DNA of 64,000 nucleotides from Desulfobulbaceae bacterium (GCA_003249165.1 QKJV01000098.1:19793-83792); one strand, 5' to 3'. Positions 1-43,586 are shown, counted from the stretch's first letter. Made by a program: numbers and translations. Notes: generated by a model not told the origin, from the letters alone.

Positions 1-1206
1 TTAAATCGCGCCAACGCCGCCGATGAGAGGGTTTTTGAATTACTATCTCAGAAGTTTAGGCTGTTTGATGGTGTGTTCGGTTCGTCGGATGAAGTGCTTG
101 GAGCCATTGAGGATGGCGTGGATTTTGAAAAGCGTATCCTTGATATTTACCAGTCTTGTCGTGAATCGGATGCAATCAGGGCGGCGTTTGATGCTCTGCA
201 GGAGGAGCTATCCGAACAGATAAGTGAAAACATTACTAAGGCGCGGCAGTCTATATTGGAAAATTTCGATGAGGATGTTTTCAAACATCTGAAAGACTGT
301 CACGAGGGGACAAAAGCAGAACTCGACAAGTTTTCCCGGTGGCTTTGTAACTTCTTTACTATGTGGGGAGCGGAACGGGTTGAGCCTCTCGACCAATGGC
401 GCTTTGCTTACATAGAAAATGGCGAGCGTAAGACTTATAACCTCCGTTGGAAAGACGCAGAAGCACTACATGATGAGTTTTTGCGCCGGGATGGTGAACT
501 TTGCACCAAGTGGATTGCTGAAGCAATGAATACAAATGCGCCTCCCGTTGCCATACGGTTTAATCATTCAGACTTGCCACAGAAAGACCATATCAGCTTT
601 TTGGACAGCCATCCTACTCTGAATAACGGCATCATCTCAATCGACAAGCTGACGCATAGGGGTATTGACAATGAGGAGCATCTGATTGTATCTGTTGTCA
701 CCAACGATGGTACACTCATTGATGGCGATGATGCAGGCAATATAATTGACCGTATTATGGAGCTACCGGCCGATATCGTCGGCGAGTGTTCGCCCGAATC
801 GGAAACTCTTATCAGGCGGCGGCAGGAAGGTATTCAACGGCAAAAGGATGATATCGCCGAACGCAACAAGATGTATTTCTTGGAGCAGGTCGAAAAACTG
901 GACGCTTTCAGTGAAGATTTAAAAGAAGGATTACAAAAGCAACTGAAAGCCCTGAAAAAGGAAATAGCAGAAAAACGTAAGGATTTTCGAACTTCAAAGG
1001 ATATCTGCTCTCTTGATGAAATGTTGGAGAAACGATCGGCGATTACCGCCTTAGAAGATAAGCGCAAAAAAATGGAGCGGGAAATAAGCCTCGAAGAAGA
1101 TAGGATTACCCTTGAGAATGAGGCTTTACAGGAAGATATCCGCACCCGTTTAAACGGCGAAATCGAAACCGAAACGATAATGACTTTCTCGTTCGAGATA
1201 GTATAG
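1..1206 (+). CDS. SNF2/RapA-like SF2 helicase, C-terminal part (5-prime end lies outside the window)
   Basis: Frame 1 is open from base 1 (LNRANAADERVFELLSQKFRLFDGVFGSSDEVLGAIEDGVDFEKRI). As I recall it, this is the conserved segment that follows motif VI in bacterial SNF2-type helicases. The rest is a K/E-rich coiled coil. The stop lies 13 nt before mod. Confidence 0.55.
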   Translation, partial: LNRANAADERVFELLSQKFRLFDGVFGSSDEVLGAIEDGVDFEKRILDIYQSCRESDAIRAAFDALQEELSEQISENITKARQSILENFDEDVFKHLKDCHEGTKAELDKFSRWLCNFFTMWGAERVEPLDQWRFAYIENGERKTYNLRWKDAEALHDEFLRRDGELCTKWIAEAMNTNAPPVAIRFNHSDLPQKDHISFLDSHPTLNNGIISIDKLTHRGIDNEEHLIVSVVTNDGTLIDGDDAGNIIDRIMELPADIVGECSPESETLIRRRQEGIQRQKDDIAERNKMYFLEQVEKLDAFSEDLKEGLQKQLKALKKEIAEKRKDFRTSKDICSLDEMLEKRSAITALEDKRKKMEREISLEEDRITLENEALQEDIRTRLNGEIETETIMTFSFEIV

Positions 1207-1219
1207 GAGGATTTTATAT

Positions 1220-2800
1220 ATGCAGAAACTTGAGCTCACGTGGATTGGTAAGGGCGATGAGCCCGCTGTCGAACCACGTATACTGCTTCACGATGCTTCA
1301 AAGGATTACGGCGACCCCGCCGCTGATAATATGCTGATCCACGGTGATAACCTGCTCGCGCTGAAAGCCTTGGAGCAGGAATTCGCCGGGCAGGTGAAGT
1401 GCATCTATATTGATCCTCCATATAACACGGGCAGCGCTTTTGAACATTACAACGACAACTTAGAACACTCCACCTGGCTATCGCTAATGGTTCCGCGCCT
1501 GCGTATCCTGCGTAATTTGTTGAGTGATGACGGTAGTATTTGGATTAGCATTGATGACGAAGAACGCGATTATCTCAAAGTGGTCTGCGATGAAATATTT
1601 GGCCGCAATTGCTTCGTGAGTGCAGTGTGTTGGCGCAATTCTGATAATAGTAACAATAATGCTTTAACATTTTCGATTGACCACAATTATATTTTAGTTT
1701 ATGGTCGGAATCCCGGATGGAGGCCGAAGTTTCTTAATGATCCGAGTAAACGAACGCACTTTAAGAATCCCAACAATGACCCGCGGGGCCCATGGTTTGA
1801 CGGAAATCCTGTTAATAATCCGGGATTGAGAGTAAATCTCCAGTACAACATCACCACTCCAAACGGGAAAATTATTAAGCACCCACCGAATGGCTGGCGT
1901 TGGTCATGGGAAACCATCCAAGAAAAGATGAAAACAGGTGAAATCCGATTTTCGGAGGATGAAACGCGACTAATAAGGCGAACTTATCTTAATGATATGG
2001 AAGGATTGCCACCGTCAACATTATGGACGGATTTGGATACGACAGGGCATACTCGTAAAGCAAAATATGAATTAAAAAACTTATTCCCTGAGGTTCCGGT
2101 AACCAGCCTGTTCAGTACCCCGAAGCCAGAACTGTTAATCAATTATGTTCTACAACTGGCAACTAATTCCGGCGACCTCGTTCTTGACTCGTTCCTCGGC
2201 TCAGGCACAACCGCCGCAGTTGCTCACAAGATGGGACGGCGATATATCGGTATCGAACTAGGCGAGCATTGTTATACTCACTGCCTGCCCCGCTTGCAAA
2301 AAGTAGTGGACGGCGAACAAGGCGGCATTTCTAAAGCCGTAGACTGGCAAGGCGGTGGCGGTTTCAAGTTATACGAACTTGCATCCACGCTGATTGTGAC
2401 GGACAAGCACGGCCAATCTGTCATTAACGACAAGTATAATGCGCAAATGCTCGTCGCCGCAATCGCCAAACTCAATGGCTACGATTATGCGCCTGATACC
2501 GATGTGTTCTGGAAACAGGGAAAAAGTCAGGCGGGCAGCTTCATCTTCGTCACAACCGAATACCTTACGGCGGCACAGCTTGACGATATCTCCCGCGACC
2601 TGCCGGAGTATGAACGTCTGCTTATTTGCGCCCCGGCATTTGATATTGGTCTTGGCAAACGCTACGAGAACATAAATGTCCGTAAAATTCCGCAGTCGGT
2701 TCTCGATAAGTGTGAGTATGGTGCGGACAACTACAACCTGAATATTGTAAATCCCCCCGAACTGGACGAAGACGAATGGGAGGACGGAGAAGATGCTTAG
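1220..2800 (+). CDS. mod: Type III-like DNA methyltransferase (Mod; beta-class N6A/N4C)
   Basis: Motif IV IYIDPPYNTG lies N-terminal to motif I VLDSFLGSGTTAAVA (beta-class order). C-terminal GGGGFKLYEL is typical of Mod. RBS aggagg is upstream. The gene overlaps res by 8 nt. Confidence 0.85.
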   Translation: MQKLELTWIGKGDEPAVEPRILLHDASKDYGDPAADNMLIHGDNLLALKALEQEFAGQVKCIYIDPPYNTGSAFEHYNDNLEHSTWLSLMVPRLRILRNLLSDDGSIWISIDDEERDYLKVVCDEIFGRNCFVSAVCWRNSDNSNNNALTFSIDHNYILVYGRNPGWRPKFLNDPSKRTHFKNPNNDPRGPWFDGNPVNNPGLRVNLQYNITTPNGKIIKHPPNGWRWSWETIQEKMKTGEIRFSEDETRLIRRTYLNDMEGLPPSTLWTDLDTTGHTRKAKYELKNLFPEVPVTSLFSTPKPELLINYVLQLATNSGDLVLDSFLGSGTTAAVAHKMGRRYIGIELGEHCYTHCLPRLQKVVDGEQGGISKAVDWQGGGGFKLYELASTLIVTDKHGQSVINDKYNAQMLVAAIAKLNGYDYAPDTDVFWKQGKSQAGSFIFVTTEYLTAAQLDDISRDLPEYERLLICAPAFDIGLGKRYENINVRKIPQSVLDKCEYGADNYNLNIVNPPELDEDEWEDGEDA

Positions 2801-5540
2801 AGAACCTTATTCGGCGAAATCATACTCCTATAACTCAAAATACATTGACAATCGCCTTGCCCTCCGTCCCCCTCAGAAGGAGAGCTTGGAGCGGTTCGCG
2901 CGGATTGTGGATATACTCTCCCTCTCAAAAACACCGAACTTGGATGAGGAACTCATAAAAATCCGTGAACTGTTCCCAACACTCACCAGTTTTGAGCGGG
3001 ACTTTCCGTCGGTATGCTTCGCCCTTGCCACGGGCATAGGCAAAACTCGATTGATGGGCGCAATGATTGCCTATCTGCACTACGAGAAAGGTGTCAATAA
3101 TTATTTTGTGATGGCCCCCAACCTCACGATTTATAAGAAGCTGAAAAACGACCTCGGTAACCCGAACAATGAAAAGTACGTGTTTCGAGGTTTAGATAAG
3201 TTCGTCAACGCGCCACGCATTATCGATGGCGACAATTACGAAGAATTCCGTCAGATGTCGCTGTTTGAAGGCGGCGTTACCATCAACGTCTTTAACATCA
3301 GCAAACTGAACTCAGAGAGCGGACGGATGCGCCGCTTGCAGGAGGTTCTTGGGCAGTCTTATTTTTCGTATTTACAATCCTTGCCCGACCTCTGCATCTT
3401 TATGGACGAAAGCCACCACTACCACGCCGACAGAGGGTTTGACACCATAAACGAGCTTCACCCAGTCCTTGGTGTGGAACTTACCGCAACACCACAAATT
3501 CAAAAAGGCGCACGGAAGATCGATTTCAATAACGTGGTGTATGAATACTCTCTTGCTCATGCGCTGAACGACGGGCTTTACGTCAAAGTCCCCGCCGTAT
3601 TCACTCGCCGGGATTTTCGCCATGAAGAATATACCCCGCAACAACTTGACCGCGAAAAACTCAACGACGGCATCCGTCTGCACGAAGAAACAAAAAGCAG
3701 ACTGGATGTGTACGCTCGTACCCACGGCAAGTCCATTGTTAAGCCGTTTGTGCTTGTTGTTGCCAAAGATACAACCCACTCTCGGGAAATACGCGAGTAT
3801 CTCACTTCGGATGCTTTCTTTCATGGATATTACAAAGATAAGGTATTGGAAATCAACTCGGCACAGCGCGGCTCGGAAAAGGACGAGAACATAGAGCTGC
3901 TACTCTCGCTTGAGTTGACCACCAATGTAATCGAAATCGTCATTCACGTCAATATGCTCAAGGAGGGCTGGGACGTGACGAACCTCTATACCATTATCCC
4001 TCTCCGCGCTTCGGCATCCGAAACACTCACGGAACAGACCATTGGGAGAGGTTTGCGTTTGCCTTATGGTCAGAGAGCAGGAGTGGATGAGGTTGACAGA
4101 CTCTCTATCGTCAGTCACGACCGTTATCAGGCGATTGTAGACCTTGCTAAAGACCCGAACTCACTTGTCCGTAAGATTTACTACATTGAGGAACAAGAAC
4201 TTCCCGAAAGCGAAGACGGGCGCGAAACCGTACCTCTTCCGACAGTTTATGACGCGTTGACCTCCGGCGAGAGCTTCACACAACAGTTGGCGTTTACCCT
4301 GCGTGAAACGGCGACGGACGAATACAAAGCTGAAAAAACGCCCGACCAGACGATGCTTATCGCAAGCATTGTCCAAAGTATAACCGCTAAAACGGTGGTC
4401 GAGGTTAACAGGCAGGTTCGGAATATTAATGCCATTAATGATGAACAAACGCGCAAATGGGTGCATGGCAGTATTGTTACGCAAGCCATACAGCAACTTC
4501 CCGAATTTGGGCTAAAAGAAGAGGACTTAACAGCAGTTGTCACGAAAGCAATCGAAACTTGTGCCCAAGCCCTCACAGAAAACGTCATTCCGATACCGCA
4601 GTCAGTCGTTCAGCCCCATACCGAAGTTAAGCGTGGATTTTATGACTTCACGCTTGATACGAGCCGTATGCGTTGGCATCCGTCCGACGACACACTCCTC
4701 GGCACGGAACTCATGGAGGGCGGCGAAACCTTTACGCTGGAAACAGGAACAGTTGCATTTGCAAAGATTGATACAGTGGAAAATGAGATTGTCCGACATA
4801 TTATCGTCCATGATAACGTGGACTACGCAACTTGTTCAGACCTCATCTATTCACTTATCACAGATGCCAAGCGGCACTTTTTGTCGTACTTGAATGATGA
4901 GGAAACGGAAAAAGTCATGCGCGATCGGCAGCGCACCATCGCTGAAATCATCTACGCGCAGATGAACGAGCATTTTTATAAAGAGGAAGTCAGCTATAGG
5001 GCAGCCAATATGCGCCCATTCACAAGGATTGAACCGAGTTTCGGCGGCAAGTTTAAATCGGATGAGATATATGACTTGCGGACGCCTATGGCGGCATCTG
5101 ATGTGAAGTCCAAGATATTCAGCGGATTTAAAAAAGCAGGTCATACGCTGTACAAATTCGACAGTGACACGGAGCGAACTTTTGCAGTCGTGCTGGAGAA
5201 CGATAATGCCGTTCTTCGTTGGTTGCGTCCCGCGCCGCGTCAGTTTAACATCTACTGGGGACAAGGCGGCGCGAGCCGTTATGAGCCAGATTTCATTGTT
5301 GAGACCGCCGAAACAATTTATATGTGCGAACCGAAAGCGAGCAACAAGATGCGAGATGCGGACGTGCTTGAAAAGCAGGAAGCCGCAGAAGAATACTGCC
5401 GCGCCGCCAGTGAATTCAACACCGAAAACGGCGGTAAACCGTGGAAGTATGTTCTTATTTCTCACGATGAAATCCGACCGCAGTCGAGTTTTACTTATCT
5501 CGCAAAACAAGCTTCGCACGAGCAGTTATCGATAGAGTAG
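2793..5540 (+). CDS. res: Type III restriction enzyme Res subunit (SF2 helicase + C-terminal PD-(D/E)xK nuclease)
   Basis: Motifs ATGIGKT (I), FMDESHHY (II), ELTATP (III), KEGWDVTNL (V), QTIGRGLRLP (VI). C-terminal YEPDF...MCEPK is a nuclease motif. Confidence 0.8.
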   Translation: MLREPYSAKSYSYNSKYIDNRLALRPPQKESLERFARIVDILSLSKTPNLDEELIKIRELFPTLTSFERDFPSVCFALATGIGKTRLMGAMIAYLHYEKGVNNYFVMAPNLTIYKKLKNDLGNPNNEKYVFRGLDKFVNAPRIIDGDNYEEFRQMSLFEGGVTINVFNISKLNSESGRMRRLQEVLGQSYFSYLQSLPDLCIFMDESHHYHADRGFDTINELHPVLGVELTATPQIQKGARKIDFNNVVYEYSLAHALNDGLYVKVPAVFTRRDFRHEEYTPQQLDREKLNDGIRLHEETKSRLDVYARTHGKSIVKPFVLVVAKDTTHSREIREYLTSDAFFHGYYKDKVLEINSAQRGSEKDENIELLLSLELTTNVIEIVIHVNMLKEGWDVTNLYTIIPLRASASETLTEQTIGRGLRLPYGQRAGVDEVDRLSIVSHDRYQAIVDLAKDPNSLVRKIYYIEEQELPESEDGRETVPLPTVYDALTSGESFTQQLAFTLRETATDEYKAEKTPDQTMLIASIVQSITAKTVVEVNRQVRNINAINDEQTRKWVHGSIVTQAIQQLPEFGLKEEDLTAVVTKAIETCAQALTENVIPIPQSVVQPHTEVKRGFYDFTLDTSRMRWHPSDDTLLGTELMEGGETFTLETGTVAFAKIDTVENEIVRHIIVHDNVDYATCSDLIYSLITDAKRHFLSYLNDEETEKVMRDRQRTIAEIIYAQMNEHFYKEEVSYRAANMRPFTRIEPSFGGKFKSDEIYDLRTPMAASDVKSKIFSGFKKAGHTLYKFDSDTERTFAVVLENDNAVLRWLRPAPRQFNIYWGQGGASRYEPDFIVETAETIYMCEPKASNKMRDADVLEKQEAAEEYCRAASEFNTENGGKPWKYVLISHDEIRPQSSFTYLAKQASHEQLSIE

Positions 5541-5565
5541 ACACTTCTAAGGAGGGAGTTGCCAC

Positions 5566-6708
5566 ATGAAATTTTTTCACTTATCCGACCTGCATCTCGG
5601 TAAGCGTGTCAACGAGTTTTCCATGCTGGAAGACCAGTGGGACATCCTGCAAAAAATTGTTGTGCTTGCCAAAGAGAATAAACCGCATGCCATCCTCATC
5701 GCAGGTGATGTCTACGATAAAGCTATGCCCATTGTAGAGGCCGTCCAACTATTGGATAGATTTCTTGTTTGGCTCAACGAACTGGGAATTGCGGTGTTTA
5801 TAGTTTCCGGCAACCACGACAATGCTGAGCGTGTGGCGTTCGGCGCGGAATTGTTGAAAAACAGTAACGTGCATATTGTGCAGTCGTATAATGGCAAAAT
5901 GAATCCTATAACTCTCTCCGACAGATATGGCGATATCAATATCTGGATGCTACCGTATCTCAAGCCGTCCCTGGTCCGCAAGCACTTTCCTGACAGGGAT
6001 ATAACTACATACTCGAACGCCGTATCCGCAGCTTTGAGCAATGCGAATCTTGACACTTCAGTAAGAAATGTGCTGATTGCCCACCAGTTTGTTACCGGGG
6101 CAGTTACAAGCGAATCTGAAGAAATCTCTGTCGGTGGTTCGGAGAATGTGGATGGCTCGGTTTTTGATGGGTTTGATTACGTTGCATTAGGGCATATTCA
6201 CCGTCCACAGCAGATCGGTCGAGAAACCCTTCGATACAGCGGAACCCCGCTCAAATATTCGTTTTCGGAAGCAAGCCATACAAAATCTGTGACAGTCGTT
6301 GATATGGATGTCAAGGGCAAGATAAAAATCACTGAATTGCCGCTTGTACCGCTCCGTGATATGCGTGAAGTTCGCGGCACATACAACGAGATTATGAACC
6401 GTAACAGCTACCGGGGTACGAACACGGAGGACTATATCCATATTGTGTTGACAGATGAGCACGATGAGCCGGATGCGATGTCAAAACTGCGAAACGTCTA
6501 CCCTAACCTGATGCGCTTGGAGTACGATAACAGACGAACACAGGCAGCGAGTTCTCTCGAAACGGTAGCGTCCACGGAAAAGAAAACGCCATCTCAGTTA
6601 TTCGGGGAACTGTTCGAAATGCAAAACGGACAGCCGATGAGTGAAGAGCAATCAAAATATGTAACAAGCCTATTCAACGAAATCTGGGAGGAGGTGTCGA
6701 ACTCATGA
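5566..6708 (+). CDS. sbcD: Exonuclease SbcD (Mre11-like phosphoesterase)
   Basis: MKFFHLSDLHLGK, AGDVYD, SGNHD and GHIHRPQ calcineurin-like motifs. RBS aaggaggga. 4-nt overlap with sbcC. Confidence 0.9.
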   Translation: MKFFHLSDLHLGKRVNEFSMLEDQWDILQKIVVLAKENKPHAILIAGDVYDKAMPIVEAVQLLDRFLVWLNELGIAVFIVSGNHDNAERVAFGAELLKNSNVHIVQSYNGKMNPITLSDRYGDINIWMLPYLKPSLVRKHFPDRDITTYSNAVSAALSNANLDTSVRNVLIAHQFVTGAVTSESEEISVGGSENVDGSVFDGFDYVALGHIHRPQQIGRETLRYSGTPLKYSFSEASHTKSVTVVDMDVKGKIKITELPLVPLRDMREVRGTYNEIMNRNSYRGTNTEDYIHIVLTDEHDEPDAMSKLRNVYPNLMRLEYDNRRTQAASSLETVASTEKKTPSQLFGELFEMQNGQPMSEEQSKYVTSLFNEIWEEVSNS

Positions 6709-9473
6709 GACCTCTCAAACTGACCATGTCTGCCTTTGGCTGTTATGCAGACAAACAGACCGTTGATTTTCAAACGCTTGGCAATGAAGGGCTATACCTC
6801 ATTACTGGTGATACTGGAGCGGGAAAAACAACCATATTCGATGCCATTACCTTCGCACTCTACGGGGAAACAAGCGGTGACAACAGGAAAGCAGAAATGC
6901 TGCGTAGCAAGTACGCACAAGAGAATGCAGAAACCTATGTTGAGCTTTCATTCCAATACCATGATAAGGTCTACCTTATCAAACGTAATCCGGCTTATGT
7001 GCGGGCAAAGCAACGTGGTGAAGGCACAACAGAGGAAAAGGCTGATGCCGAACTGCACCTACCAGACGACCGCATTGTGACGAAACTTAGAGAGGTCAAC
7101 ACCAAGGTCGAGGAAATACTCGGTATCAACCGTGAGCAGTTTGTCCAGATTGCGATGATAGCACAGGGTGAATTTCTGAAAGTCCTTCACGCCAGTACCG
7201 AAGACCGAATCGAGATATTCCGTAAGATTTTTTATACGGACGCCTACAAAACATTTCAAGACAGAGTTAAGAAGGACGCGAACGGACTCGTTGCAGAAAT
7301 CAAAGAGCAACGGCGCGGTTACGACTTTAGCCTCGGTAATGTTCAAGTAGATGCGAACGACGAAGAAAACACGCAAAAACTCTCCGATGCCAAGTCTGGG
7401 CTCTTATTGGCGGGTGATGTCATCGAATGGCTTACACTAATTATTTCTGCCGACGATGAAGCATTCTCCGCAAATGAGAAATTGTTGGAGAAAGTGGGCG
7501 TCAAACTGGCTGAAATAAACCAGAGGGTCGGGCAAGCCGAGCAGGATAAGAAAGCGCGTGACGCTTTAAAAGCTGCGGAAGACCGTCTCCCTTCTGAAAT
7601 GGCGGCTCAGAATGAAGCTGAATCCGTTTTAAACGCGGAAAAAGCTAAACAGCCTGAATACGAGTCCGTAAAAACTCAAATTTCTGAAATAGAGCGGTCG
7701 TTGACTAAATATCAGGAACTGCAAAATCTTATCGATTCGATAAAGTTAAACGAGGAAAAGTTATCTGTCGAAAAGCAAAATGCCGATAACTTACAAAAGA
7801 AACAAACCTCCGATACATCTGCGCTTAAGACCGCAAAAGAGGAACTCAAGTCTTTAGTGGATGCCGAAGTCATAGCCGAAACATTGCGTAGCCAACAAGG
7901 AAAGCTGACCACAAAGCAGAGCAGTATTGGTTCGTTAACCGCTTTGCTCGAAGGTTATAGCAGACTGCTTTCTGAACTCAAAGCGGCACAAGACGATTAC
8001 ACCGAAAAGTCTACAATTGCAAAGACTAAGCGGGATGGATATGAAACTCTTAACAAGGCGTATCTCGATGAGCAAGCGGGGATATTGGCAGTAGAACTGA
8101 AAGATGGACAACCCTGCCCAGTCTGCGGTTCTACCGAGCATCCTGATCCTGCGGTTTTATCTGTTAAGGCTCCTACAAAGGCGGAACTTGATAAGGCAAA
8201 GAAGGCCGCTGAGGCTGCAGAATCAGAAATGACTACTGCCAGTGGCTTGGCAAGCAACTTGAACGGGCAAAGCGGTACTAAGCGAGACGAAATCATAACC
8301 GCTGCAACGACGTTATTGGGAGAAATCTTGTTCGATAATATCCCGTCGGTTTTGGAGAGTGCGTTAACTGAGGTCAAAACAGGACTTGCGGAAGTCAATG
8401 AGAAACTCGCCGAGCAAGAGAAAAGAATAGCTCGAAAAAAGGAACTTGAAGAAGCGATACCTACTTCCGAGAGTAACCTTATTAAAGTCGGCGAGGCTCT
8501 TGGTAAGTCCAAAGAACAAGTCGCTGCACTGACCACGCAGATTGACGCCGACAGCAAAACAAGGGACAAGCAGGCAGCGGAACTCAAATTTAAGAATGAG
8601 GCAGATGCCAAAGCGGAAATCACCGCTCTCAGCACCAAAAAGAAAGGCTACGAAGATGCCCTCCAAACCGTCCAGACCGCATATGATACAGCAAAAACGA
8701 AAGTGAACGGCACAGCAACGGAGATACAAACATTGCAAGCACAGCTTGGTGATTCACAACCTTTGGATTTGGATGCACTAAAACAAGAAAAAGGCACTAT
8801 TGAAAGCACACAGCGTGGATTGGGCGAAATCAACCGTGTTGTCGGCACACGAAAGTCTGTCAACCAAACTGCGTTGAACGACATTAACAAAACGGCTAAA
8901 GCCATCATGGAGCTCGAAGTTCGTTACAAGTGGTTGAAAGAAATTTCCGACACAGCAAACGGAGATATTAGCGGCAAAGAAAAAATCAAACTGGAAACCT
9001 ATATCCAAGCAGCGTACTTCGACAGGATAATTGCGCGGGCAAATATTCGCCTTCTTCAGATGTCAAATAGCCAGTTCGAGTTAAAGCGGCGAGATGTAAG
9101 CGGCAAGCAGGGACAAAGCGGCTTAGACTTGAATGTCATTGACCACTACAATGGTACAGAACGCGATGCAAAAACGCTCTCAGGTGGTGAGTCGTTCATC
9201 GCCTCTCTGTCGCTTGCACTTGGTCTTTCGGATGAAATACAGAACAATGCTGGAGGCATACGTCTTGATTCGATGTTTGTTGATGAGGGCTTCGATTCAT
9301 TAGATGATACGAAACTGTCACAATCAATACAGGCGTTGATGAGTATATCGCAGACCAATCGCCTTGTTGGGATAATATCACATGTTACTGGGCTTGATGA
9401 AAAAATAGGTCGCAAAATCGTCGTGATCAAAGACCGTACGGGTGGTAGCAGAGCCGAAATACTGGTGGGATAA
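6705..9473 (+). CDS. sbcC: Exonuclease SbcC (Rad50-like ABC ATPase with zinc hook)
   Basis: Walker A GDTGAGKTT, long coiled coil, CPVCGSTEHP zinc hook, signature LSGGESF, Walker B MFVDEGFDSLD. Confidence 0.9.
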   Translation: MRPLKLTMSAFGCYADKQTVDFQTLGNEGLYLITGDTGAGKTTIFDAITFALYGETSGDNRKAEMLRSKYAQENAETYVELSFQYHDKVYLIKRNPAYVRAKQRGEGTTEEKADAELHLPDDRIVTKLREVNTKVEEILGINREQFVQIAMIAQGEFLKVLHASTEDRIEIFRKIFYTDAYKTFQDRVKKDANGLVAEIKEQRRGYDFSLGNVQVDANDEENTQKLSDAKSGLLLAGDVIEWLTLIISADDEAFSANEKLLEKVGVKLAEINQRVGQAEQDKKARDALKAAEDRLPSEMAAQNEAESVLNAEKAKQPEYESVKTQISEIERSLTKYQELQNLIDSIKLNEEKLSVEKQNADNLQKKQTSDTSALKTAKEELKSLVDAEVIAETLRSQQGKLTTKQSSIGSLTALLEGYSRLLSELKAAQDDYTEKSTIAKTKRDGYETLNKAYLDEQAGILAVELKDGQPCPVCGSTEHPDPAVLSVKAPTKAELDKAKKAAEAAESEMTTASGLASNLNGQSGTKRDEIITAATTLLGEILFDNIPSVLESALTEVKTGLAEVNEKLAEQEKRIARKKELEEAIPTSESNLIKVGEALGKSKEQVAALTTQIDADSKTRDKQAAELKFKNEADAKAEITALSTKKKGYEDALQTVQTAYDTAKTKVNGTATEIQTLQAQLGDSQPLDLDALKQEKGTIESTQRGLGEINRVVGTRKSVNQTALNDINKTAKAIMELEVRYKWLKEISDTANGDISGKEKIKLETYIQAAYFDRIIARANIRLLQMSNSQFELKRRDVSGKQGQSGLDLNVIDHYNGTERDAKTLSGGESFIASLSLALGLSDEIQNNAGGIRLDSMFVDEGFDSLDDTKLSQSIQALMSISQTNRLVGIISHVTGLDEKIGRKIVVIKDRTGGSRAEILVG

Positions 9474-9483
9474 GGAGATTTCT

Positions 9484-10809
9484 ATGTTTTACTGGAAAGG
9501 CAAGACTGAAAACAATCTGACATTGACTGAAGAACTGCTTTCATGTGGCTCAATTAAATCAATTCAAATAGCCACAGCTTTTATCTCCGCCGAAGGTGTT
9601 GCAATTGTGCGTCAACTCCTGGAGAAGTATCAGCTTTCAAAGGAACGCATCTTGCTCTATTTATCCGAGCAATTCTCGTCCGACAAACCGGGGGATTTGC
9701 TTGAACAGTTATTTGAAATTAGCACTGTAAAGGTTTTGTTTGACCAGAGCTTTCACGCCAAGGTGTTCTTGCTTTCCGGAGTAGAAACCAAACTTATTTA
9801 TGGCTCGTCGAATTTAACGGCGGGCGGTTTTACCCGAAACATGGAATTTGATTATATTGGAATACCCTCCAAAGAAGAATTAGAGAAAGTCCTTGAATTT
9901 TTCAGATATTGCGACAGGCTTTCAACTGCGGTCAGCAGTGAAGTGATAACTTACTATAAGGAACTGCAACCTGCACTTGATGAGTTAAATCAAACACAGT
10001 GGTTTCTAAAAAAACGTCTTACTGGTTTTTCTAAAAAAGAAGATCCATTTCGTGAAGATGATTATGATTTGTCAGACAGCTACTTTTCTTTTGAGGACTA
10101 CGAGACATTTTTTTCACGCAACGCTCAAAGTAACGATGCCCAAATCCGCCACCGTAGATTAAGCGTTCAACAAAAAATGCTTGCTGTCCACCAAATGATA
10201 TACCCTAAAATTAGAAGTCTTGGTATTGCACATCATAAACGAGAGAAAAATATCACTTCAACCGTCGAACCAAACATATATAACCACCATTCCGTGGGCT
10301 GGATTGGCGTTCGGTACGGGAAATTACCGCATGAGATTGACTGGCTTAACGCTGGACGCGAAAGTGATGACGATGCTTATGGCTTCCAAAAGCATGGTTG
10401 CTTACAATTCAGCATCAACAGTGGTGGGTTTGATATAAATCTGTTTTTAGCAGTTCGAAATGATGCGATAGACCGCATGAAACTCAGTGAGCATCAATTT
10501 AAAATGCTGTTTGAACAGCGCCCGCAGATTGAAACTGAAATGAGAAACCTTGTGGGACACGGCTTTGAATGGCGAATAGAAAATGGGGCAGAACCCTTTC
10601 GAGTTGATAACGACCCAGTCGAAAATTTCTGTGACTGGTTTAAGGTCAATGACTCGGATGGATACGAATCATATTTGATAAAATATTACGAGCCAGGCGA
10701 TCCGATATTAAAAAGCAAAGAGAGCATTTCCGCTGAGGTTATTCGTGTCATGACGATGCTCCAACCACTATATGACACTATGGTATGGCGGCCGCTGAAA
10801 AAGTCGTAG
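9484..10809 (+). CDS. PLD-family (single HKD) nuclease-like protein with an unknown ~270-aa C-terminal domain
   Basis: HAKVFLL...GSSNLTAGG is an HxK(x4)D...GSxN motif. I chose the internal ATG at 9484 (RBS ggaga, 10 nt after the sbcC stop) over the track start at 9442, which overlaps sbcC. Confidence 0.6.
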   Translation: MFYWKGKTENNLTLTEELLSCGSIKSIQIATAFISAEGVAIVRQLLEKYQLSKERILLYLSEQFSSDKPGDLLEQLFEISTVKVLFDQSFHAKVFLLSGVETKLIYGSSNLTAGGFTRNMEFDYIGIPSKEELEKVLEFFRYCDRLSTAVSSEVITYYKELQPALDELNQTQWFLKKRLTGFSKKEDPFREDDYDLSDSYFSFEDYETFFSRNAQSNDAQIRHRRLSVQQKMLAVHQMIYPKIRSLGIAHHKREKNITSTVEPNIYNHHSVGWIGVRYGKLPHEIDWLNAGRESDDDAYGFQKHGCLQFSINSGGFDINLFLAVRNDAIDRMKLSEHQFKMLFEQRPQIETEMRNLVGHGFEWRIENGAEPFRVDNDPVENFCDWFKVNDSDGYESYLIKYYEPGDPILKSKESISAEVIRVMTMLQPLYDTMVWRPLKKS

Positions 10810-11122
10810 GAGAAAGAATCAAATACCAACATGCGGTAAAAGTATCAACCTATTTTTGTTGGATGGAAAACCGATGGGGTGCATTGCATGCACTCTTGTC
10901 ATCTGGACTGGTGTAGTGTATTGAATTGCATAGGAAACTGACGGACACTGCAGGTTCGGTGTTTGAAGATAAGGAGCAAGGTCTCACTCGAAGTGCAAGA
11001 CGAAACCAATGACGGTTTCTCGCAGTAGGCTGTGCGGTCGGCGCCTGAAAACTGCCGGACGCTGCGGGTGCGTCAGAGCGGATTTGAGAAATTAAGCAAT
11101 TGCAGTACAGGAGGAAAGTTCA

Positions 11123-14098
11123 ATGGAATTCAAAAAGGAAGCCATAGGCAATAACTACTTAGCTTATTTTCCCGTAGTTGATGAGTTTCCAAGTGCAGAC
11201 GAAGTAGTCTGCACTTGGAAACAAAACGTCTTTGATTATGTTGTCGAAACAGAATCGACTAAAGGTTTTCGCGCCGCGCAGTTAGGCGCAATTTTTGCGG
11301 TAAAATCCCATTGGACTATTTCCGAAGCCCCTGTAACTGTTGTTATGCCGACCGGTACAGGAAAAACAGAAACTATGTTTGCAACAATTGTGTCTGAATG
11401 CCGTAAACGCACACTTATCGTTGTTCCCAGTAATTTACTTCGCCAACAGACTGTAGAGAGATGCTTAAAGTTAGAAAGGCTGCGTGAGTTCAACGCAATA
11501 AGTGATAAATGCCTTAACCCAGTTATCGCTTGTCTCAATTCATCTCCGACGAATAAGAATGAACTAAAAAACATTATCGAGAGAAGTAATGTTATTATTT
11601 CGACAGCTTCGCTTCTAAGCGGTTTTACTGACGAATATTTTAATGTCTTGTCTGAACTCTGCGATACATTGATTGTTGACGAAGCGCATCATACTCCTGC
11701 AAAATCGTGGCATAGAACAAAGCTGAAGTTTGCTGGTAGGCTTTGCATCCAGTTTACAGCTACACCATTTCGAGATGATGGGCAAAAAATTGACGGCAAG
11801 ATAATATATAACTTCCCATTGTCACTTGCCCAAAAACAAGGCTATTTCAAGCCAATTAACTTTTATCCGATTCTTGAGTTTGACTACGATAAAAAAGATT
11901 TAGCCATTGCTAATAAAGCTGTAGAAATTCTTGAAACTGATTTATCAAATGAATATCCCCATTTGCTCTTAGTTCGCGCGTCAACCAAAAAGCGAGCTGA
12001 AGAACTATATAATCTTTACTGTCAACATTTTGATAAGCACAGTCCAGTTCTTATCGTCAGTGGTCAAAAAGGAAATAAGCAGTCGATTGCCGATGCAAAA
12101 AGCGGAAAAGCAAAAATCATTGTTTGCGTAGATATGTTTGGAGAGGGCATAGACATTCCTCAATTGAAGATTTGCGCCATTCATGACAAGTATAAATCAA
12201 TTCCAATAACTATCCAGTTTATCGGGCGTTTTGCACGCTCGCAAGGCAATCTTGGTAATGCTTCGGTCGTAGCTAATATTGCAGATGATGATATCGAAGA
12301 TGCCTTGCAGGAATTGTATTCACAAGACGCGGATTGGAGCGAACTCCTAAAGAAAATTTCTGAAGATAAAATAAGCAAAGAGGAGCGGTTGCAAGAGTTA
12401 GTCAGAGACTTTACGGGAAAAGAAGAAATTCCTATTTCACAAATTCGACCCAAAGTCAGTATGTTTATGTATCATACTGACGACAAAAATTGGAATTGGG
12501 GGAACTGGGATTCAGTTTTCAATCCCGAACACAGTCATTGCTGTGTTAACCAAAAGGCTAAGATATTAATTATCACGGAACGCGATATAAGTTCTGTTGA
12601 CTGGACAACCAGTAAAGACATAGTTGACCTTACTTGGCAATTACACATTCTATACTGGAATGAAAAGAAGAAAGTCTTTTTCATCAACACTACCGACAAA
12701 GGATTAGCTGACCGTTTTGCCTCAGCAATATTTACTTCCAAGAAACGAAAAGCAGATGAAGATTTATTCAGATGCTTATCAGGTGTCAACCGACTAAAAC
12801 TTGCAACCGTAGGTCTGAAGCCTAAGAACGGAGGGCATATCAGGTATCAAATGTATGCCGGTATCGATGTAGAAGCTGGACTCACTGAAGCACAAAAAGT
12901 GAATGTGAGAAAGTCAAATCTATTCGGTGTAGGGTATGAAGACGGCAAAGATATTAGTATTGGGTGTTCTTATAAAGGTACTGTTTGGGCAAAGTGGGTA
13001 GAGACATTGGATTACTGGATTGAATGGTGTAATAAGGTGGCCGACAAAATTCTGGACAGCAGTATTAGCGTAGAGGAAATCTTAAAAGGCGCACTAATCC
13101 AAACCGTTGTCACGAGTCGACCTGACGCAGTACCATATGGAATTGACTTCCCTATCGAATTATATTTGAGCAGCTCATATTACTTAAAAGCTGGGGTCAT
13201 GGATGACTATCTGATAAACTTCGATATTGCATTAACAGTAGAAGATAACTCGTCACCACTAACCTTTTCGGTGTCAAATGGTCAAATGAGCGAGGAATTT
13301 ACTCTTGAAGTGTCAGATAAATATAGTGACGGTTTTATGGTGTCGCACAAAAGCGGGGATTTAATATTGGTAAGCGACAGGAAGAAGGAACGGTATTTAT
13401 CGGAATATTTCTGCGAAAACCCGCCTGAAATACGGTTTTGCGACCAGTCATCGCTTGATGGAAATCTATTAACGCGAGCAAAAATTCATGATACAAAATT
13501 TAGCAATGGCAACATCACTGTGCTTAACTGGGATGGGGTTGACATAAAGAAGGAATCACAATGGCAGACTGGCATAGGTGTAAAAGCAAATGATAGTATC
13601 CAATATAAAGTGATTTCTATGCTGAAATCAACGAATAAATATGCCGTTATATTTGATGATGATGACAAGGGCGAAATCGCCGATGTTGTTGCAATAATTG
13701 AAGAGCCAACAGCAATCAGGTTTGAATTGTACCATTGCAAGTTTTCTGGCGGAGGTGAAGCAGGCTTCCGAGTTAAGGATTTGTATGAGGTTTGCGGACA
13801 AGCGGAGAAGTGTGTGAACTGGTATCCTCGCATAGACAAACTTATAGACAGGTTGATTGAGAGAGAAAGCAAACGACTGTCAAAGCCGCAAGGTACTCGC
13901 TTCGAAGTAGGTGATGGCAAGACACTTCAATCGCTCAAAAAGAAACTTAAATTTTTTAGACCTGAATTTAGTGTATACATTGTACAGCCGGGTGTTGACA
14001 GCAAAAGAATAACACAACCTATGCACGATGTACTATGTAGTGCTTCATCTTATCTTAAAGAAACATATGCCATACAGTTGCAGCTGATTTGTTCTTGA
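11123..14098 (+). CDS. SF2 (DEAD/DEAH, ResIII-type) helicase fused to a C-terminal PD-(D/E)xK-like domain; single-protein helicase/nuclease architecture
   Basis: Motifs MPTGTGKTE (I), IVDEAHHTPA (II), FTATPFR (III), GEGIDIP (V), QFIGRFAR (VI). C-terminus has GEIADVVAI...FELYHCKFS. RBS aggagg. Confidence 0.6.
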   Translation: MEFKKEAIGNNYLAYFPVVDEFPSADEVVCTWKQNVFDYVVETESTKGFRAAQLGAIFAVKSHWTISEAPVTVVMPTGTGKTETMFATIVSECRKRTLIVVPSNLLRQQTVERCLKLERLREFNAISDKCLNPVIACLNSSPTNKNELKNIIERSNVIISTASLLSGFTDEYFNVLSELCDTLIVDEAHHTPAKSWHRTKLKFAGRLCIQFTATPFRDDGQKIDGKIIYNFPLSLAQKQGYFKPINFYPILEFDYDKKDLAIANKAVEILETDLSNEYPHLLLVRASTKKRAEELYNLYCQHFDKHSPVLIVSGQKGNKQSIADAKSGKAKIIVCVDMFGEGIDIPQLKICAIHDKYKSIPITIQFIGRFARSQGNLGNASVVANIADDDIEDALQELYSQDADWSELLKKISEDKISKEERLQELVRDFTGKEEIPISQIRPKVSMFMYHTDDKNWNWGNWDSVFNPEHSHCCVNQKAKILIITERDISSVDWTTSKDIVDLTWQLHILYWNEKKKVFFINTTDKGLADRFASAIFTSKKRKADEDLFRCLSGVNRLKLATVGLKPKNGGHIRYQMYAGIDVEAGLTEAQKVNVRKSNLFGVGYEDGKDISIGCSYKGTVWAKWVETLDYWIEWCNKVADKILDSSISVEEILKGALIQTVVTSRPDAVPYGIDFPIELYLSSSYYLKAGVMDDYLINFDIALTVEDNSSPLTFSVSNGQMSEEFTLEVSDKYSDGFMVSHKSGDLILVSDRKKERYLSEYFCENPPEIRFCDQSSLDGNLLTRAKIHDTKFSNGNITVLNWDGVDIKKESQWQTGIGVKANDSIQYKVISMLKSTNKYAVIFDDDDKGEIADVVAIIEEPTAIRFELYHCKFSGGGEAGFRVKDLYEVCGQAEKCVNWYPRIDKLIDRLIERESKRLSKPQGTRFEVGDGKTLQSLKKKLKFFRPEFSVYIVQPGVDSKRITQPMHDVLCSASSYLKETYAIQLQLICS

Positions 14099-14237
14099 TC
14101 GCTAAAATCAAAAGAACATCAGAATTTAGAAAATTCGCTGCGAAGGACAATCAGCGATAAGGGTGTCCAACTTTTAACGATTTGCATTCGGGTGGTGGAT
14201 TTTATCAATATGGTAGGACATGAACCTGTACGATATA

Positions 14238-14418
14238 ATTGACTTGTTTCCCAGAACGGATAAAAGCATAAAAGTTCAGTGGACATGTTTCCACGCACGG
14301 ATAATGCCCATAAAAACCACTATCGACATATTCCCACGAACAGAAAATCAGCAAAACACATACCAGACATCAATCTGATGCTATCGTTCCACGTTGAGAC
14401 GGTCGTATTGATAACAAG
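14238..14418. repeat. Copy 1 of a ~180-bp direct repeat (partner at 41702-41881)
   Basis: Hand alignment gives roughly 80 percent identity, higher in the 3-prime half. Contains three TTCC(N2-3)GAACGGA-like motifs (14246, 14287, 14330) and the palindrome CATCAATCTGATG (14368-14380). Confidence 0.85.
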
Positions 14419-14984
14419 GGTTAACAAGCAAGTGTAGTAAGAAGCCTGTAAACAAAGGCTTTCAAAGGTTTGAGAGTGAAAAATCGAAGTGATAAAAACG
14501 TGAAAATATCTGTTCGCGGGAACAAGTCCAAAGTCATGATTTTGAACGTGACAGAGCGATTTAGATGTCGGTGCTTAGTGAGTGGTTGGGAATGGTGTGC
14601 AGCGCTACGCTGATGTCCTCGGCAAGCTGCTTTCTCTGCTTGCCTGTGATGTTGTAGGGTATTGTCATTTTCATGTAAAAATCCTCCGTTCTTTTAATCT
14701 TCTTAAAAGGCTGTCGCGTTTTGCGACTCCCTTTGCTCGATGGGCTGTACCAATGGACGCTGAACACTTCGTTCACCGTTCCGGTCAGCCCGGTTCCTTC
14801 TTTTCGGTATGTGTATATTCGCTCTGAATGCACAGAATAGCAAGTCATTTTCGAGAGATGTATCAGAAAATTAAAAGTTTTCCGCAGGACATTTTCTTAT
14901 AATGTGCGAAACAGTATTGTATTTTGAGATATTTTGTGCTATTATATAGTTTAGATTATTGTGTATTAAGGCTGGAGGCGTAAT

Positions 14985-15197
14985 ATGGCTACCTCATATA
15001 ACAAGCTATGGAAACTGCTCGTAGACAAGAAAATGAGCAAGGCCGACTTGCGAAAAGCCTCCGGTGTGTCTCCTAACACGATGACAAAACTGCGCCGGGA
15101 CGAGCCGGTCATGCTGAGTGTGCTGGACAAGATATGTAAAACGTTGGATGCCAATTATGGGGACATCGTTGACTATGTGCCGGATGATACTTTTTAA
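14985..15197 (+). CDS. XRE/Cro-type helix-turn-helix regulator
   Basis: YNKLWKLLVDKKMSKADLRKASGVSPNTMTKLRRDEPVMLSVLDKICKTLD is a typical short HTH_26/XRE protein. RBS ggagg. Confidence 0.8.
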   Translation: MATSYNKLWKLLVDKKMSKADLRKASGVSPNTMTKLRRDEPVMLSVLDKICKTLDANYGDIVDYVPDDTF

Positions 15198-15280
15198 TGT
15201 TACTATGAGGAATGAAAATAAAACTTCTTACGTATCAAGCTTGTTCAAATATAAGAATTAATTGATGGGAGTGATAATTT

Positions 15281-16453
15281 ATGGCGCAACTTGCCGAAAT
15301 CATCAAGTATGAAGGAGATAATTCTACCTTCATATGGAAGCATCCTTGTGAGGACTTCAACACAACTACACAGTTGATTGTTCATGAGTCGCAGGAAGCG
15401 ATATTCTTTATGAACGGTCAGGCGTTAGATTTGTTTGGAGCGGGTCGGTACACGCTCGAAACCGAAAATATCCCGCTCATCAAGAAGTTTCTCAACAAAC
15501 CGACAGGCGACAAAACGCCGTTTCATTGCGAAGTCTATTTCATCAATAAGACCGAGCAGATGGCGATTCGCTGGGGAACCGACAGCAAGGTGCAGTATGT
15601 AGAACCTACATATAAATTCCCGCTTTCCATTGGTGCAAGCGGTGAAATGGCTCTTTCTGTTGACGATTCGCGAAAACTACTCGTCAGACTCGTTGGCACG
15701 GAGCGTGTTTTGGAACAACCAAAGCTGGTGGCTTTCTTCCGGGCTTTCCTGATGACGAAGGTAAAAACCTACATTGCACAAACAATGAAAGCCAGTGCTA
15801 TCAATATATTTGAGATTGACGAGCATCTAGAGAGCTTCTCCACGGAAATCAGGGAACGCCTGATTAAAGACTTCTCGGATTACGGTGTTGCACTGAAACG
15901 CTTCTTCGTCACCACGATTGTGAAGCCGGACGGTGACCCTACATATGAGAAGTTCAAGGATTTGCATTACAGGCAATACGCCGATGTTGCTGAAGCCCAA
16001 CTTCAACAGAGAGTAGGCATCATCGAACAGCAAACCGAAGCCCAGCGTATGGTGATTGAGGCTCAGGGAATCGCACAAAAGCGAACTACCGAAGGTTACT
16101 CCTACCAGCAAGAGCGTGGATTCGATGTTGCTGAAAAGGTTGCCGCAAACGAAGGTGCTGGGAACTTCAGCAGTGCAGGAATCGGATTAGGCATGATGGC
16201 TGGAATCGGTGGTGCGGTCGGCGGCGCAGTAAGTGGCACCTTCAATGAAGCATTCGCTTCGATTGGAACGCCGAACGCTTCCGCTCCTAATCGGTTCTGT
16301 GACGCTTGTGGTGAGGAAATCACCCCCGGCGCGGCATTCTGCGATAATTGCGGAACTCAGCTAAGTTTACCTGATGTGTGCAATAAATGCGGGTTCAAGT
16401 TCATCAAGCCCGGCAAATTCTGCCCTAAATGCGGCACAAAGAGGGAGGGATAA
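15281..16453 (+). CDS. SPFH/band-7 family protein with a C-terminal double zinc ribbon (COG4260/YdjI-like)
   Basis: N-terminal IIKYEGDNSTFIWKHPCEDFNTTTQLIVHESQEAIFF is SPFH-like. Gly-rich linker. C-terminus has CDACG...CDNCG...CNKCG...CPKCG. Confidence 0.75.
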   Translation: MAQLAEIIKYEGDNSTFIWKHPCEDFNTTTQLIVHESQEAIFFMNGQALDLFGAGRYTLETENIPLIKKFLNKPTGDKTPFHCEVYFINKTEQMAIRWGTDSKVQYVEPTYKFPLSIGASGEMALSVDDSRKLLVRLVGTERVLEQPKLVAFFRAFLMTKVKTYIAQTMKASAINIFEIDEHLESFSTEIRERLIKDFSDYGVALKRFFVTTIVKPDGDPTYEKFKDLHYRQYADVAEAQLQQRVGIIEQQTEAQRMVIEAQGIAQKRTTEGYSYQQERGFDVAEKVAANEGAGNFSSAGIGLGMMAGIGGAVGGAVSGTFNEAFASIGTPNASAPNRFCDACGEEITPGAAFCDNCGTQLSLPDVCNKCGFKFIKPGKFCPKCGTKREG

Positions 16454-16456
16454 AGA

Positions 16457-17131
16457 ATGTCGAAGAATAAAAAGTTAGGGTACATAGTATTAGCCATATC
16501 GTTTGTCCTTTTCAATGTTATCGCGTTCGCAGTTCCGACAGACAAGACTTCCGCATTTTGGATCGCGTATGCCTTTACAGTAATCGCTTTTTCGGCACAG
16601 ATATTTATATGGAATCTGGCATTCAGCAAGGCTGGAACACTCAAAAGTAAATTCTTAGGGTTACCAATAATCCATGTTGGTATTGTTTATCTGATAATCC
16701 AGCTAGTCGCATTCGGTGTATTCTTAGCTCTTCCGTGGATTGCAAACTGGATTTCGATAATCAGTTGTGCCGTTATTCTCGGAGGTTCTGGAATTTGCTT
16801 GATAACTTCAGAGGTTGGGAGAGAAGAAATTGCACGGGTAGAAGAAAAGGTTCAGCGCAAGATTTCAGCAATCAAGGGCTTGCAAGCTGATGTTGAATTG
16901 ATTGCCGAGACGCAATCAGATGCCGCCGCAAAAGAGGCTCTCGAAGCCCTCGCGGATAAACTTAAATACAGTGATCCGATGAGCGACGATTCACTGGTTC
17001 CTATTGAAGATAATATTAGCGCAAAAATAACCTCTCTGAAAACTCAGCCAACAGCCGACATTTTGAACTCGGTTAAGCAAATAGAAATGTTGCTGTTGGA
17101 ACGAAATAATAAATCAAAGCTATTGAAATAG
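16457..17131 (+). CDS. Four-TM membrane protein with a helical cytoplasmic tail
   Basis: Four hydrophobic segments in the first ~115 aa. Starts 3 nt after the SPFH gene stop. Confidence 0.6.
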   Translation: MSKNKKLGYIVLAISFVLFNVIAFAVPTDKTSAFWIAYAFTVIAFSAQIFIWNLAFSKAGTLKSKFLGLPIIHVGIVYLIIQLVAFGVFLALPWIANWISIISCAVILGGSGICLITSEVGREEIARVEEKVQRKISAIKGLQADVELIAETQSDAAAKEALEALADKLKYSDPMSDDSLVPIEDNISAKITSLKTQPTADILNSVKQIEMLLLERNNKSKLLK

Positions 17132-17143
17132 GAGGGAATAACT

Positions 17144-41550: not shown

Positions 41551-41578
41551 AAATATGCTTTATTATATTGAGAACCCT

Positions 41579-43568: not shown

Positions 43569-43586
43569 AAAGGACAAGCAAAATAT

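Follow-up and report, generated by a model that had tools for sequence, protein, structure and literature searches.

We analysed a stretch of 64,000 nucleotides (nt) from a Desulfobulbaceae bacterium (GCA_003249165.1 QKJV01000098.1:19793-83792), referred to here at its full length as the window. It opens with genes for an SNF2-family ATPase, the Mod and Res proteins of a type III restriction-modification (R-M) system, and the two parts of the SbcCD nuclease, SbcD and SbcC. Together with one further gene, these make up a block (bases 1-10809) that forms the right-hand portion of a defence cassette with horizontal mobility. The cassette belongs to a widespread SNF2-assisted type III R-M family and carries, as a stable component, a canonical SbcCD. 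A preliminary description, made from the sequence of the window, had singled out the same genes as an unusual composite, and the recurrence of their order in loci from different phyla establishes that the composite is real, conserved and mobile.

Gene content and layout of the block

Open reading frame (ORF) calls gave five genes on the plus strand in the order SNF2-mod-res-sbcD-sbcC (Table 1), with gaps of 13, -8, 25 and -4 nt. Coordinates and gaps were exactly those of the preliminary description, and its gene identities agreed with domain calls from Pfam, PADLOC and NCBIfam. Two of its points had to be amended. The SNF2 gene does come first, but it is cut by the window edge and only the C-terminal 401 amino acids (aa) of its product are encoded in the window. 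Similarly, the unit does contain the five genes but does not stop at 9473, since a PLD-family gene follows after 10 nt and relatives add helix-turn-helix (HTH) genes upstream. Strong Shine-Dalgarno sequences lie ahead of the starts of mod, res, sbcD and sbcC (AGGAGG, GGGAGGA, AAGGAGGGAG and GGGAGGAGG, respectively). A consensus scan detected no plus-strand terminator in any gene junction of the block, as had been claimed, and promoter-like sites were found at the frequency of shuffled sequence (29 found against 25.6 +/- 4.5 expected). The GC content of 0.45-0.49 over 1-9 kb was higher than that of the genes that follow (0.40-0.425 over 9-15 kb) and of the right third of the window (0.33-0.39), again in agreement with the preliminary description. 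After the PLD gene there is a gap of 313 nt and then a separate helicase gene; the gap contains no canonical terminator and its folding z-score of -1.5 is unremarkable. An Rfam scan of 1-16000 gave no match, and repeat searches over the same bases returned only short matches, as chance predicts.

Classical type III R-M systems consist of two genes. They hemimethylate a short asymmetric site, and their ATP-dependent cleavage needs two inversely oriented unmethylated sites. Both genes are present in the block, with mod upstream of res, and their adjacency with an 8-nt overlap is conserved in relatives. Mod matched Pfam N6_N4_Mtase (162 bits, cut-off 26.7) and PADLOC MTase_III (552 bits), and its motifs run in the order DPPY (motif IV) at 65, target recognition domain (TRD), and FLGSG (motif I) at 325. 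Mod is therefore a predicted beta-class N6-adenine/N4-cytosine DNA methyltransferase of type III. In an alignment from 13 cassettes, the central columns 121-400 were only 5-38% identical as against ~70-90% in the flanks. Such hypervariability of the TRD is the pattern expected of an R-M system that diversifies its specificity, and the R-M part appears to be active.

Res matched ResIII (72 bits) and PADLOC REase_III (561 bits), and aligned with EcoP15I Res (4zcf) in the region of motif VI, a likeness limited to the helicase motifs. Among six orthologues, down to 20% identity, the helicase motifs TGxGKT (80-85), DE (205-206) and QxIGRGLRLP (415-424) were invariant, as were the PD-(D/E)xK residues E794, D833, E846 and K848. 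The idea of a Res without a nuclease, which would leave SbcCD as the only effector, is ruled out by the invariance of D833, E846 and K848. The pair shares with the EcoP15I and EcoP1I systems a mod gene that precedes and overlaps res, a beta-class Mod with a central TRD, and a Res that combines a superfamily 2 (SF2) helicase with a PD-(D/E)xK nuclease. Here, however, the pair is flanked upstream by a DrmD/RapA-like SNF2 gene and downstream by sbcD and sbcC, with the PLD gene in addition in the window.

SbcCD/Mre11-Rad50 is normally viewed as a core genome-maintenance enzyme, and SbcCD acts on hairpins and protein-blocked ends. SbcD of the block, a predicted Mn-phosphoesterase nuclease subunit of the Mre11 type, scored 165 bits against TIGR00619 (cut-off 77.65), aligned over its full length with Escherichia coli SbcD (6s6v) and matched 7dog at E 1e-56. 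The motif residues D8/H10, D48, GNHD (82-85) and H210/H212, which make up the Mre11 set, are all present. In SbcC, AAA_23 and SbcC_Walker_B were above their Pfam cut-offs, and we located a Walker A motif (GDTGAGKT) at 35, a CPVC zinc hook at 471, LSGGE at 825 and a Walker B motif (MFVDE) at 857. SbcC thus has the ATP-binding cassette (ABC) head, coiled coil and CxxC hook of its family, and its best NCBIfam matches were SbcC models, all of them under the equivalog or subfamily cut-offs (TIGR00618, 252 against 478.5 bits). Median pairwise ratios of nonsynonymous to synonymous divergence (dN/dS) were 0.034 for Res, 0.070 for SbcD and 0.098 for SbcC. Intact motifs and strong purifying selection (dN/dS 0.03-0.10) suggest that Mod, Res, SbcD and SbcC are all active, and family membership predicts that the cassette SbcCD would cleave hairpins and protein-blocked ends. 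The pair has the sbcD-sbcC order, overlapping stop and start, full motif set and normal lengths of housekeeping SbcCD, and differs from it in being embedded in, and inherited together with, a mobile R-M system that has spread across phyla.

The SNF2 part in the window is 82% identical to residues 557-953 of a full-length orthologue (locus L001). This orthologue contains the motifs GLGKT, DEAH and QRIGRCHR, and matches the structures of RapA and ISWI. It scored 681 bits against PADLOC DrmD and 688 bits against DISARM_DrmD_b (NF038318), under the cut-off of 950, and the latter match was confined to the ATPase core (model positions 23-657 of 868). An AF2 (AlphaFold2) model of the 401 residues, built from an alignment of 46 sequences with a predicted local distance difference test score (pLDDT) of 84, comprises the final section of the ATPase core, a helical spacer, a domain of the alpha/beta type and an extended coiled-coil hairpin. 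The sole significant fold matches of the model in the PDB were to RapA (8spg and 8t0l, E 9e-6 and 4e-5). As judged from its sequence, the SNF2 protein is a DrmD_b/RapA-like ATPase that the cut-off separates from the DrmD of DISARM.

Distribution and history of the cassette

Exact-sequence look-ups of SbcC and SbcD from the window found no record, and we therefore took the genomic context from relatives. Look-ups of genomic context, together with a scan limited to one genome per species, provided 18 loci. The SNF2-Mod-Res-SbcD-SbcC order and spacing were found in about 16 other loci, with proteins 70-97% identical, carried by two cultured Bacillota and by assemblies labelled Chloroflexota, Synergistota and Caldisericota. 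The search of other genomes that the preliminary description had proposed recovered the order in all 10 distinct genome loci with an SbcD of at least 69% identity. The distance from the start of res to sbcD was constant within 8 nt in these loci, one of which (L010) has lost most of the SNF2 gene. Further metagenome and look-up loci showed the same gene order. Given this repeated order and spacing, the block is not a chance neighbourhood.

Homologues at 71-93% identity occupied the top of a database search with SbcD. Those of ~90% identity came from the isolates Anaerotaenia torta and Gudongella oleilytica and from assemblies labelled Dehalococcoides, Synergistaceae and Caldisericia, and the label Micrarchaeota also occurred among the top homologues. 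Taxon labels are given here as found and may be wrong for metagenome-assembled genomes, but A. torta and G. oleilytica have been isolated in culture. Genes for integrases or serine recombinases are present near the cassettes. The occurrence of ~90% identical SbcD in unrelated taxa, the nearby integrases and recombinases, and the contrast in GC content together indicate that the composite moves across lineages. A scan of viral contigs gave a single match, to the same cassette as in L108, with no clear phage genes in the flank inspected, and provided no evidence for carriage of the cassette by phages.

In the relatives an HTH_26 gene (68 aa) immediately precedes the SNF2 gene, and the upstream flank also contains a divergent pair of HTH_3 and Peptidase_M78 genes. 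This pair resembles, and we claim resemblance only, the CapH/CapP-type DNA-damage-responsive regulators described for other defence operons (10.1101/2022.04.27.489752). The content after sbcC varies among cassettes and includes PLD, DUF4357, AAA_13 and DUF1016 genes. Within the cassette, pairwise identities of Res correlated with those of SbcD and SbcC (r = 0.955 and 0.965, respectively; 0.955-0.971 over all pairs of Res, SbcD and SbcC). Synonymous divergence (dS) between the window and L001 was 1.11 for res, 0.61 for sbcD and 0.32 for sbcC, a roughly three-fold spread between adjacent genes that hints at recombination between cassette variants.

The preliminary description had treated the SNF2 gene as an extra oddity of the locus. 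This view had to be abandoned, as SNF2-Mod-Res is widespread in metagenomes and on many plasmids. A metagenome scan with Res returned at least 589 relatives; 80 loci were kept and 44 of these had enough upstream flank, among which 40 contained an SNF2 gene upstream. Full-length homologues (SNF2 41-47% and Res ~40% identical) occur in the same order on plasmids of Ketogulonicigenium, Klebsiella, Blastomonas, Salmonella, Aeromonas and Planctomycetes, and a small HTH or WYL gene often precedes the trio. PGAP labels the three proteins 'SNF2-related protein', 'site-specific DNA-methyltransferase' and 'DEAD/DEAH box helicase family protein', and we found no name for the family in the literature searched. 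BREX-related 'BR' systems and MANTIS/Gao_RL were considered as descriptions of this arrangement and rejected, having different architectures. We conclude that (HTH)-SNF2-Mod-Res is a widespread three-gene family in its own right, apparently unnamed.

The window cassette shares the three full-length proteins and their order with these plasmid and metagenome cassettes. The other members are without sbcDC, either bare or with other cargo, and SbcCD is limited to one sub-clade. The trio is bare in Ketogulonicigenium, Klebsiella and Blastomonas, whereas extra cargo was seen in Salmonella (AbiD), a Planctomycetes plasmid (SIR2-HerA and HEC-05) and Aeromonas (AAA and DUF4276). In distant members the cargo lies between SNF2 and Mod or Res, with SNF2-Mod gaps of 1.8-3.6 kb. 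In sister cassettes the slot behind res is filled by QatABC (L036), PDC-M46A/B (L038, L048) or PDC-S14 (L033, L045), all equally tightly packed.

We then traced SbcCD through the family. Among the metagenome loci with Res at least 78% identical, 5 of 6 had SbcD behind res, against none of 10 at 55-77% and none of 38 below 55%. Trees were built by neighbour joining from modest samples. All cassettes with SbcCD formed one clade in the Res tree, with the sister lineage L045 carrying PDC-S14 behind res. L032, the only member without SbcCD, is nested within this clade, and its want of SbcCD is therefore read as a secondary loss. In the SbcD tree the cassette copies were nested among clostridial stand-alone copies, those of Gracilibacteraceae being nearest. 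The nearest non-cassette SbcD and SbcC were 53-64% identical and form stand-alone pairs in ordinary chromosomal settings of Clostridia; the neighbours checked included oxaloacetate decarboxylase, tyrosyl-tRNA synthetase (TyrRS), leucine-rich repeat (LRR) surface proteins and a metallo-beta-lactamase-fold protein. One stand-alone pair (L014) adjoins a Wadjet-like JetC/JetD pair. The simplest history is a single capture of a clostridial sbcDC operon behind res, followed by vertical retention as the cassette spread among anaerobes.

Decayed derivatives were found in several combinations. L109 has SNF2 and an intact SbcDC with a remnant of ~80 codons of mod, res being lost (9717-10001). L010 has Mod-Res-SbcDC, with most of SNF2 replaced by serine-recombinase genes (2796-5464), and L032 has SNF2-Mod-Res with an integrase gene after res in place of sbcDC (10718-12382). 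Directly upstream of the L109 cassette lies a gene for a giant helicase of DUF4011/AAA_11/AAA_12/MTES_1575/DUF3320 architecture (523-6330). A protein of the same architecture is encoded in L120 (5133-9956), 44 nt upstream of a chromosomal Salinibacter-type sbcD, which may be a coincidence.

Stand-alone sbcDC pairs are also common on plasmids, some under divergent WYL regulators beside defence genes. In L112 (Phaeobacter inhibens pP66_d) and L117 (a Pseudohalocynthiibacter plasmid; match at 9001-13214), sbcD-sbcC has a divergent WYL and WGR pair upstream and SIR2/ATPase, AbiEii and helicase genes as neighbours. Plasmids of Deinococcus (L115), Sphingopyxis (L116) and Sinorhizobium (L118) carry stand-alone sbcDC among insertion sequence (IS), toxin-antitoxin and McrC genes. 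Portable SbcCD may be a more general phenomenon. On Salinibacter ruber pSR116 (L113/L114, NZ_CP030365.1 24487-38907), genes for a DrmD-like SNF2 helicase (1896 aa), a DrmMI-like methylase (1469 aa; 321 bits against PADLOC DrmMI), SbcD, SbcC and an integrase are co-directional, and the run adjoins an anti-phage dGTPase. We considered this as an independent association of SNF2, methylase and SbcCD. Three relatives of its SbcD (59-79% identical) lack these neighbours, lying next to AddAB/MutL or, on a plasmid, after an IS element, which leaves a single adjacency.

Neighbouring genes in the window

The PLD protein scored 26.9 bits against PLDc_2, just under the Pfam cut-off of 27, and contains HAK at residue 91 and GSSN downstream. 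It gave weak PADLOC matches to PDC-M27B, ZacB and DrmC. Homologues behind sbcC were found only in L001 and L005 (with a query that was mis-framed) and in L031 (67% identity). The PLD gene is thus an accessory gene that is absent from most cassettes.

The helicase gene that follows (11123-14098) encodes an SF2 protein of 991 aa with ResIII/DEAD/Helicase_C domains and ~600 C-terminal residues without a domain match. Unlike PLD, it does not recur behind the cassettes of relatives. Within its 5' end lies an inverted repeat whose 16-nt arms match perfectly and are 6 nt apart (GTTTCCAAGTGCAGAC / GTCTGCACTTGGAAAC; 11185-11222). A second small HTH_26-type gene (14985-15185), whose product is 45% identical to the upstream HTH_26 protein of the cassette, lies just before the SPFH/Band7 gene; small regulators of this type may mark the starts of several island modules. 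Bases 15281-41550, which complete the left two-thirds of the window, form a dense defence island (Table 1, SPFH/Band7 to VWA). The GC content drops from ~0.43-0.45 to ~0.355 near 40-41 kb, just short of the genes from the WYL regulator to the second serine recombinase, and the region of ~40000-52000 has the appearance of a border of integrated elements, or of a point where two of them meet.

Table 1. Genes of the block and of the neighbouring part of the window
Feature	Coordinates	Strand	Remarks
SNF2-family ATPase gene, 3' part	1..1206	+	frame open to window edge; C-terminal 401 aa of ~953
type III mod	1220..2800	+	N6_N4_Mtase, PADLOC MTase_III
type III res	2793..5540	+	ResIII, PADLOC REase_III; start overlaps mod stop by 8 nt (2793-2800)
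sbcD	5566..6708	+	Metallophos and SbcD_C; 25 nt past res
sbcC	6705..9473	+	AAA_23 and SbcC_Walker_B; start overlaps sbcD stop (ATGA, 4 nt)
PLD-family putative nuclease gene	9484..10809	+	single HxK; ATG 10 nt past sbcC stop, behind AAGGAG
SPFH/Band7 and zinc-ribbon protein	15281-16453		
AAA_13 ATPase	23601-25877		
HsdM	25946-28051		type I R-M
HsdS	28064-29362		type I R-M
HsdR	29757-32726		type I R-M
McrB	32738-35569		EVE domain
McrC	35536-36630		
Macro-domain protein	36656-37690		
VWA protein	39099-39752		
WYL regulator	42077-43087		
HTH_3 and M78-peptidase pair	43200-44189		second such pair
Large serine recombinase	46808-48355		first of two
KilA-N protein	48383-49234		
Large serine recombinase	50335-51960		second of two

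The role of SbcCD in the cassette

The block suggests, short of proof, that a repair enzyme has been recruited for defence against foreign DNA. The reading that we favour, to which we give an even chance, is that SbcCD is produced together with the restriction enzyme and processes cut or protein-blocked ends. Mod would methylate a short recognition sequence wherever it occurs in the host's DNA, and the variable TRD would give different cassettes different specificities. Mod-Res would find unmethylated sites on incoming DNA, which the PD-(D/E)xK nuclease of Res would cut, perhaps with the assistance of the SNF2 motor on the DNA. Type III enzymes do not turn over after cleavage. SbcCD would then attack the resulting ends, including those blocked by the non-turnover restriction complex, by hairpins or by protein caps. 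A break might in this way be turned into irreversible degradation without the host's RecBCD or AddAB, enzymes that are often inhibited by phages. The PLD protein, an addition at the 3' end, would be one more nuclease and one that the cassette can do without. A stronger version, in which SbcCD is an integral effector of an undescribed multi-component restriction system and is recruited, perhaps via SNF2, to DNA that the restriction complex has marked or nicked, is more speculative and on balance unlikely.

Several observations weigh against a partnership of SbcCD with Res. Res has its own intact nuclease, and SbcCD is therefore not needed for cleavage. In sister cassettes the modules behind res are autonomous defence systems, known or candidate (QatABC, PDC-M46A/B and PDC-S14/DUF4357), and since unrelated modules are packed there just as tightly, co-directional packing does not imply a shared mechanism. 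Co-transcription of the five genes, although probable, is deduced from spacing alone. The derivatives L109, L010 and L032 have decayed in all combinations, so that no pair of parts is strictly interdependent. Stand-alone sbcDC pairs are, in addition, common on plasmids. In the literature searched we found no experiment on such a cassette and no description of SbcCD linked to type III R-M, SNF2 or DrmD.

The use of the slot behind res by unrelated defence modules makes a serious rival of the explanation that SbcCD is an autonomous passenger, which uses the cassette promoter and has no mechanistic link to SNF2-Mod-Res. We regard this as quite possible, though not probable. Such a passenger could act by itself on foreign DNA whose ends form hairpins, are palindromic or carry protein caps, or provide portable repair for the element or its host, for example by mending breaks that the R-M system itself inflicts upon entry into an unmethylated genome. 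Tight packing in exactly the same slot is seen for modules as different as QatABC, PDC-S14 and the LmuB-like PDC-M46A/B. The cargo of distant members between SNF2 and Mod or Res, the varied gene content past sbcC, the intact SbcDC that L109 retains after loss of mod and res, and the frequency of stand-alone sbcDC as plasmid cargo are all in keeping with a passenger. However, SbcDC has been kept over a much deeper divergence (Res to 78%, SbcC to 58%) and through phylum-level transfers, whereas the other slot modules differ between sub-clades. The identities of SbcD and SbcC co-vary tightly with those of Res, and the SbcD clade (at least 69% identity) was not found without at least the SNF2 gene of the cassette.

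A further explanation is that the block is a variant DISARM: SNF2 would be its DrmD and PLD its DrmC, a methylase would accompany them, and DrmA and DrmB would have given way to Res and SbcCD. Like class 1 DISARM (DrmD, DrmMI, DrmA, DrmB, DrmC), the cassette has a DrmD_b-like SNF2 gene next to a DNA methylase gene, and a PLD gene nearby. The nearest models to SNF2 are those of DrmD_b, the PLD protein has a faint match to DrmC (E 9e-5 over 50 residues), and on pSR116 DrmD-like and DrmMI-like genes lie directly upstream of sbcDC. We nevertheless consider this explanation very improbable. No protein encoded in 1-18436 matched DUF1998/DrmB, and DrmA gave only marginal local matches, to the helicase of 11123-14098 (E 1.8e-5); both are missing from the block and from the cassettes of relatives, the upstream part included. 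Mod belongs to the type III beta class and not to DrmMI or DrmMII, with no DrmMI among the 25 best PADLOC matches listed for it, all of which were R-M or orphan methyltransferase models. The cassette also differs from DISARM in having a type III Res and SbcCD. SNF2 is below the DrmD_b cut-off with only its ATPase core matching, PLD is missing from most cassettes, and relatives of the pSR116 SbcD do not have the arrangement seen on that plasmid. The want of DrmA and DrmB, the SNF2 score and the different methylase family rule out membership of DISARM itself, as the preliminary description had held.

Hardly any weight can be given to the last explanation, that this is the host's housekeeping sbcDC with an R-M island inserted alongside: SbcD and SbcC are indeed ordinary in length, domains and motifs, and most like clostridial stand-alone copies, but the res-sbcD junction with its 25-nt spacer, the gene order and the flanks are the same in different orders and phyla at ~70-93% protein identity, the GC content fits the cassette and not the low-GC part of the window, and the surroundings are defence and mobility genes rather than core genes.

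Lamassu (LmuA-LmuB-LmuC) has been reported to have evolved from SbcCD (PMC12663957). Like the cassette, it has an ABC ATPase of the Rad50/SbcC type, with a zinc hook, in a defence setting. In Lamassu, however, SbcD persists as a split remnant (LmuC) and the effector has been swapped (LmuA), while the cassette keeps a complete and unmodified SbcCD with an Mre11-type nuclease. Lamassu is, moreover, a stand-alone abortive-infection operon, and the cassette SbcCD is tied to an R-M system. Membership of Lamassu is ruled out by the full SbcD that accompanies SbcC and by scores of 315 and 252 bits against SbcC models, compared with 65 bits (E 1e-18) against LmuB models. BREX, type I R-M and other defence operons have in common with the cassette a scaffold with inserted, co-oriented defence genes; here SNF2 and type III R-M provide the scaffold, and what has been inserted is a canonical DNA-repair complex.

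Taken together, these results describe a complete, active-looking repair nuclease fixed in an R-M cassette that jumps between phyla. The cassette is present in cultured Anaerotaenia torta DSM 100431 and Gudongella oleilytica, which makes experiments feasible. If SbcCD is only a passenger, the locus still reveals a large family usually filed as plain type III R-M, and shows that it serves as a scaffold in which other defence modules occupy defined cargo slots. If SbcCD cooperates with Res, the cassette would be a concrete case of a repair nuclease serving as the second stage of restriction, with a bearing on work on the path from SbcCD to Lamassu. Should SbcCD prove to be an integral effector, the cassette would be a living example of the enlistment of SbcCD for immunity, the step from which Lamassu has been proposed to originate.

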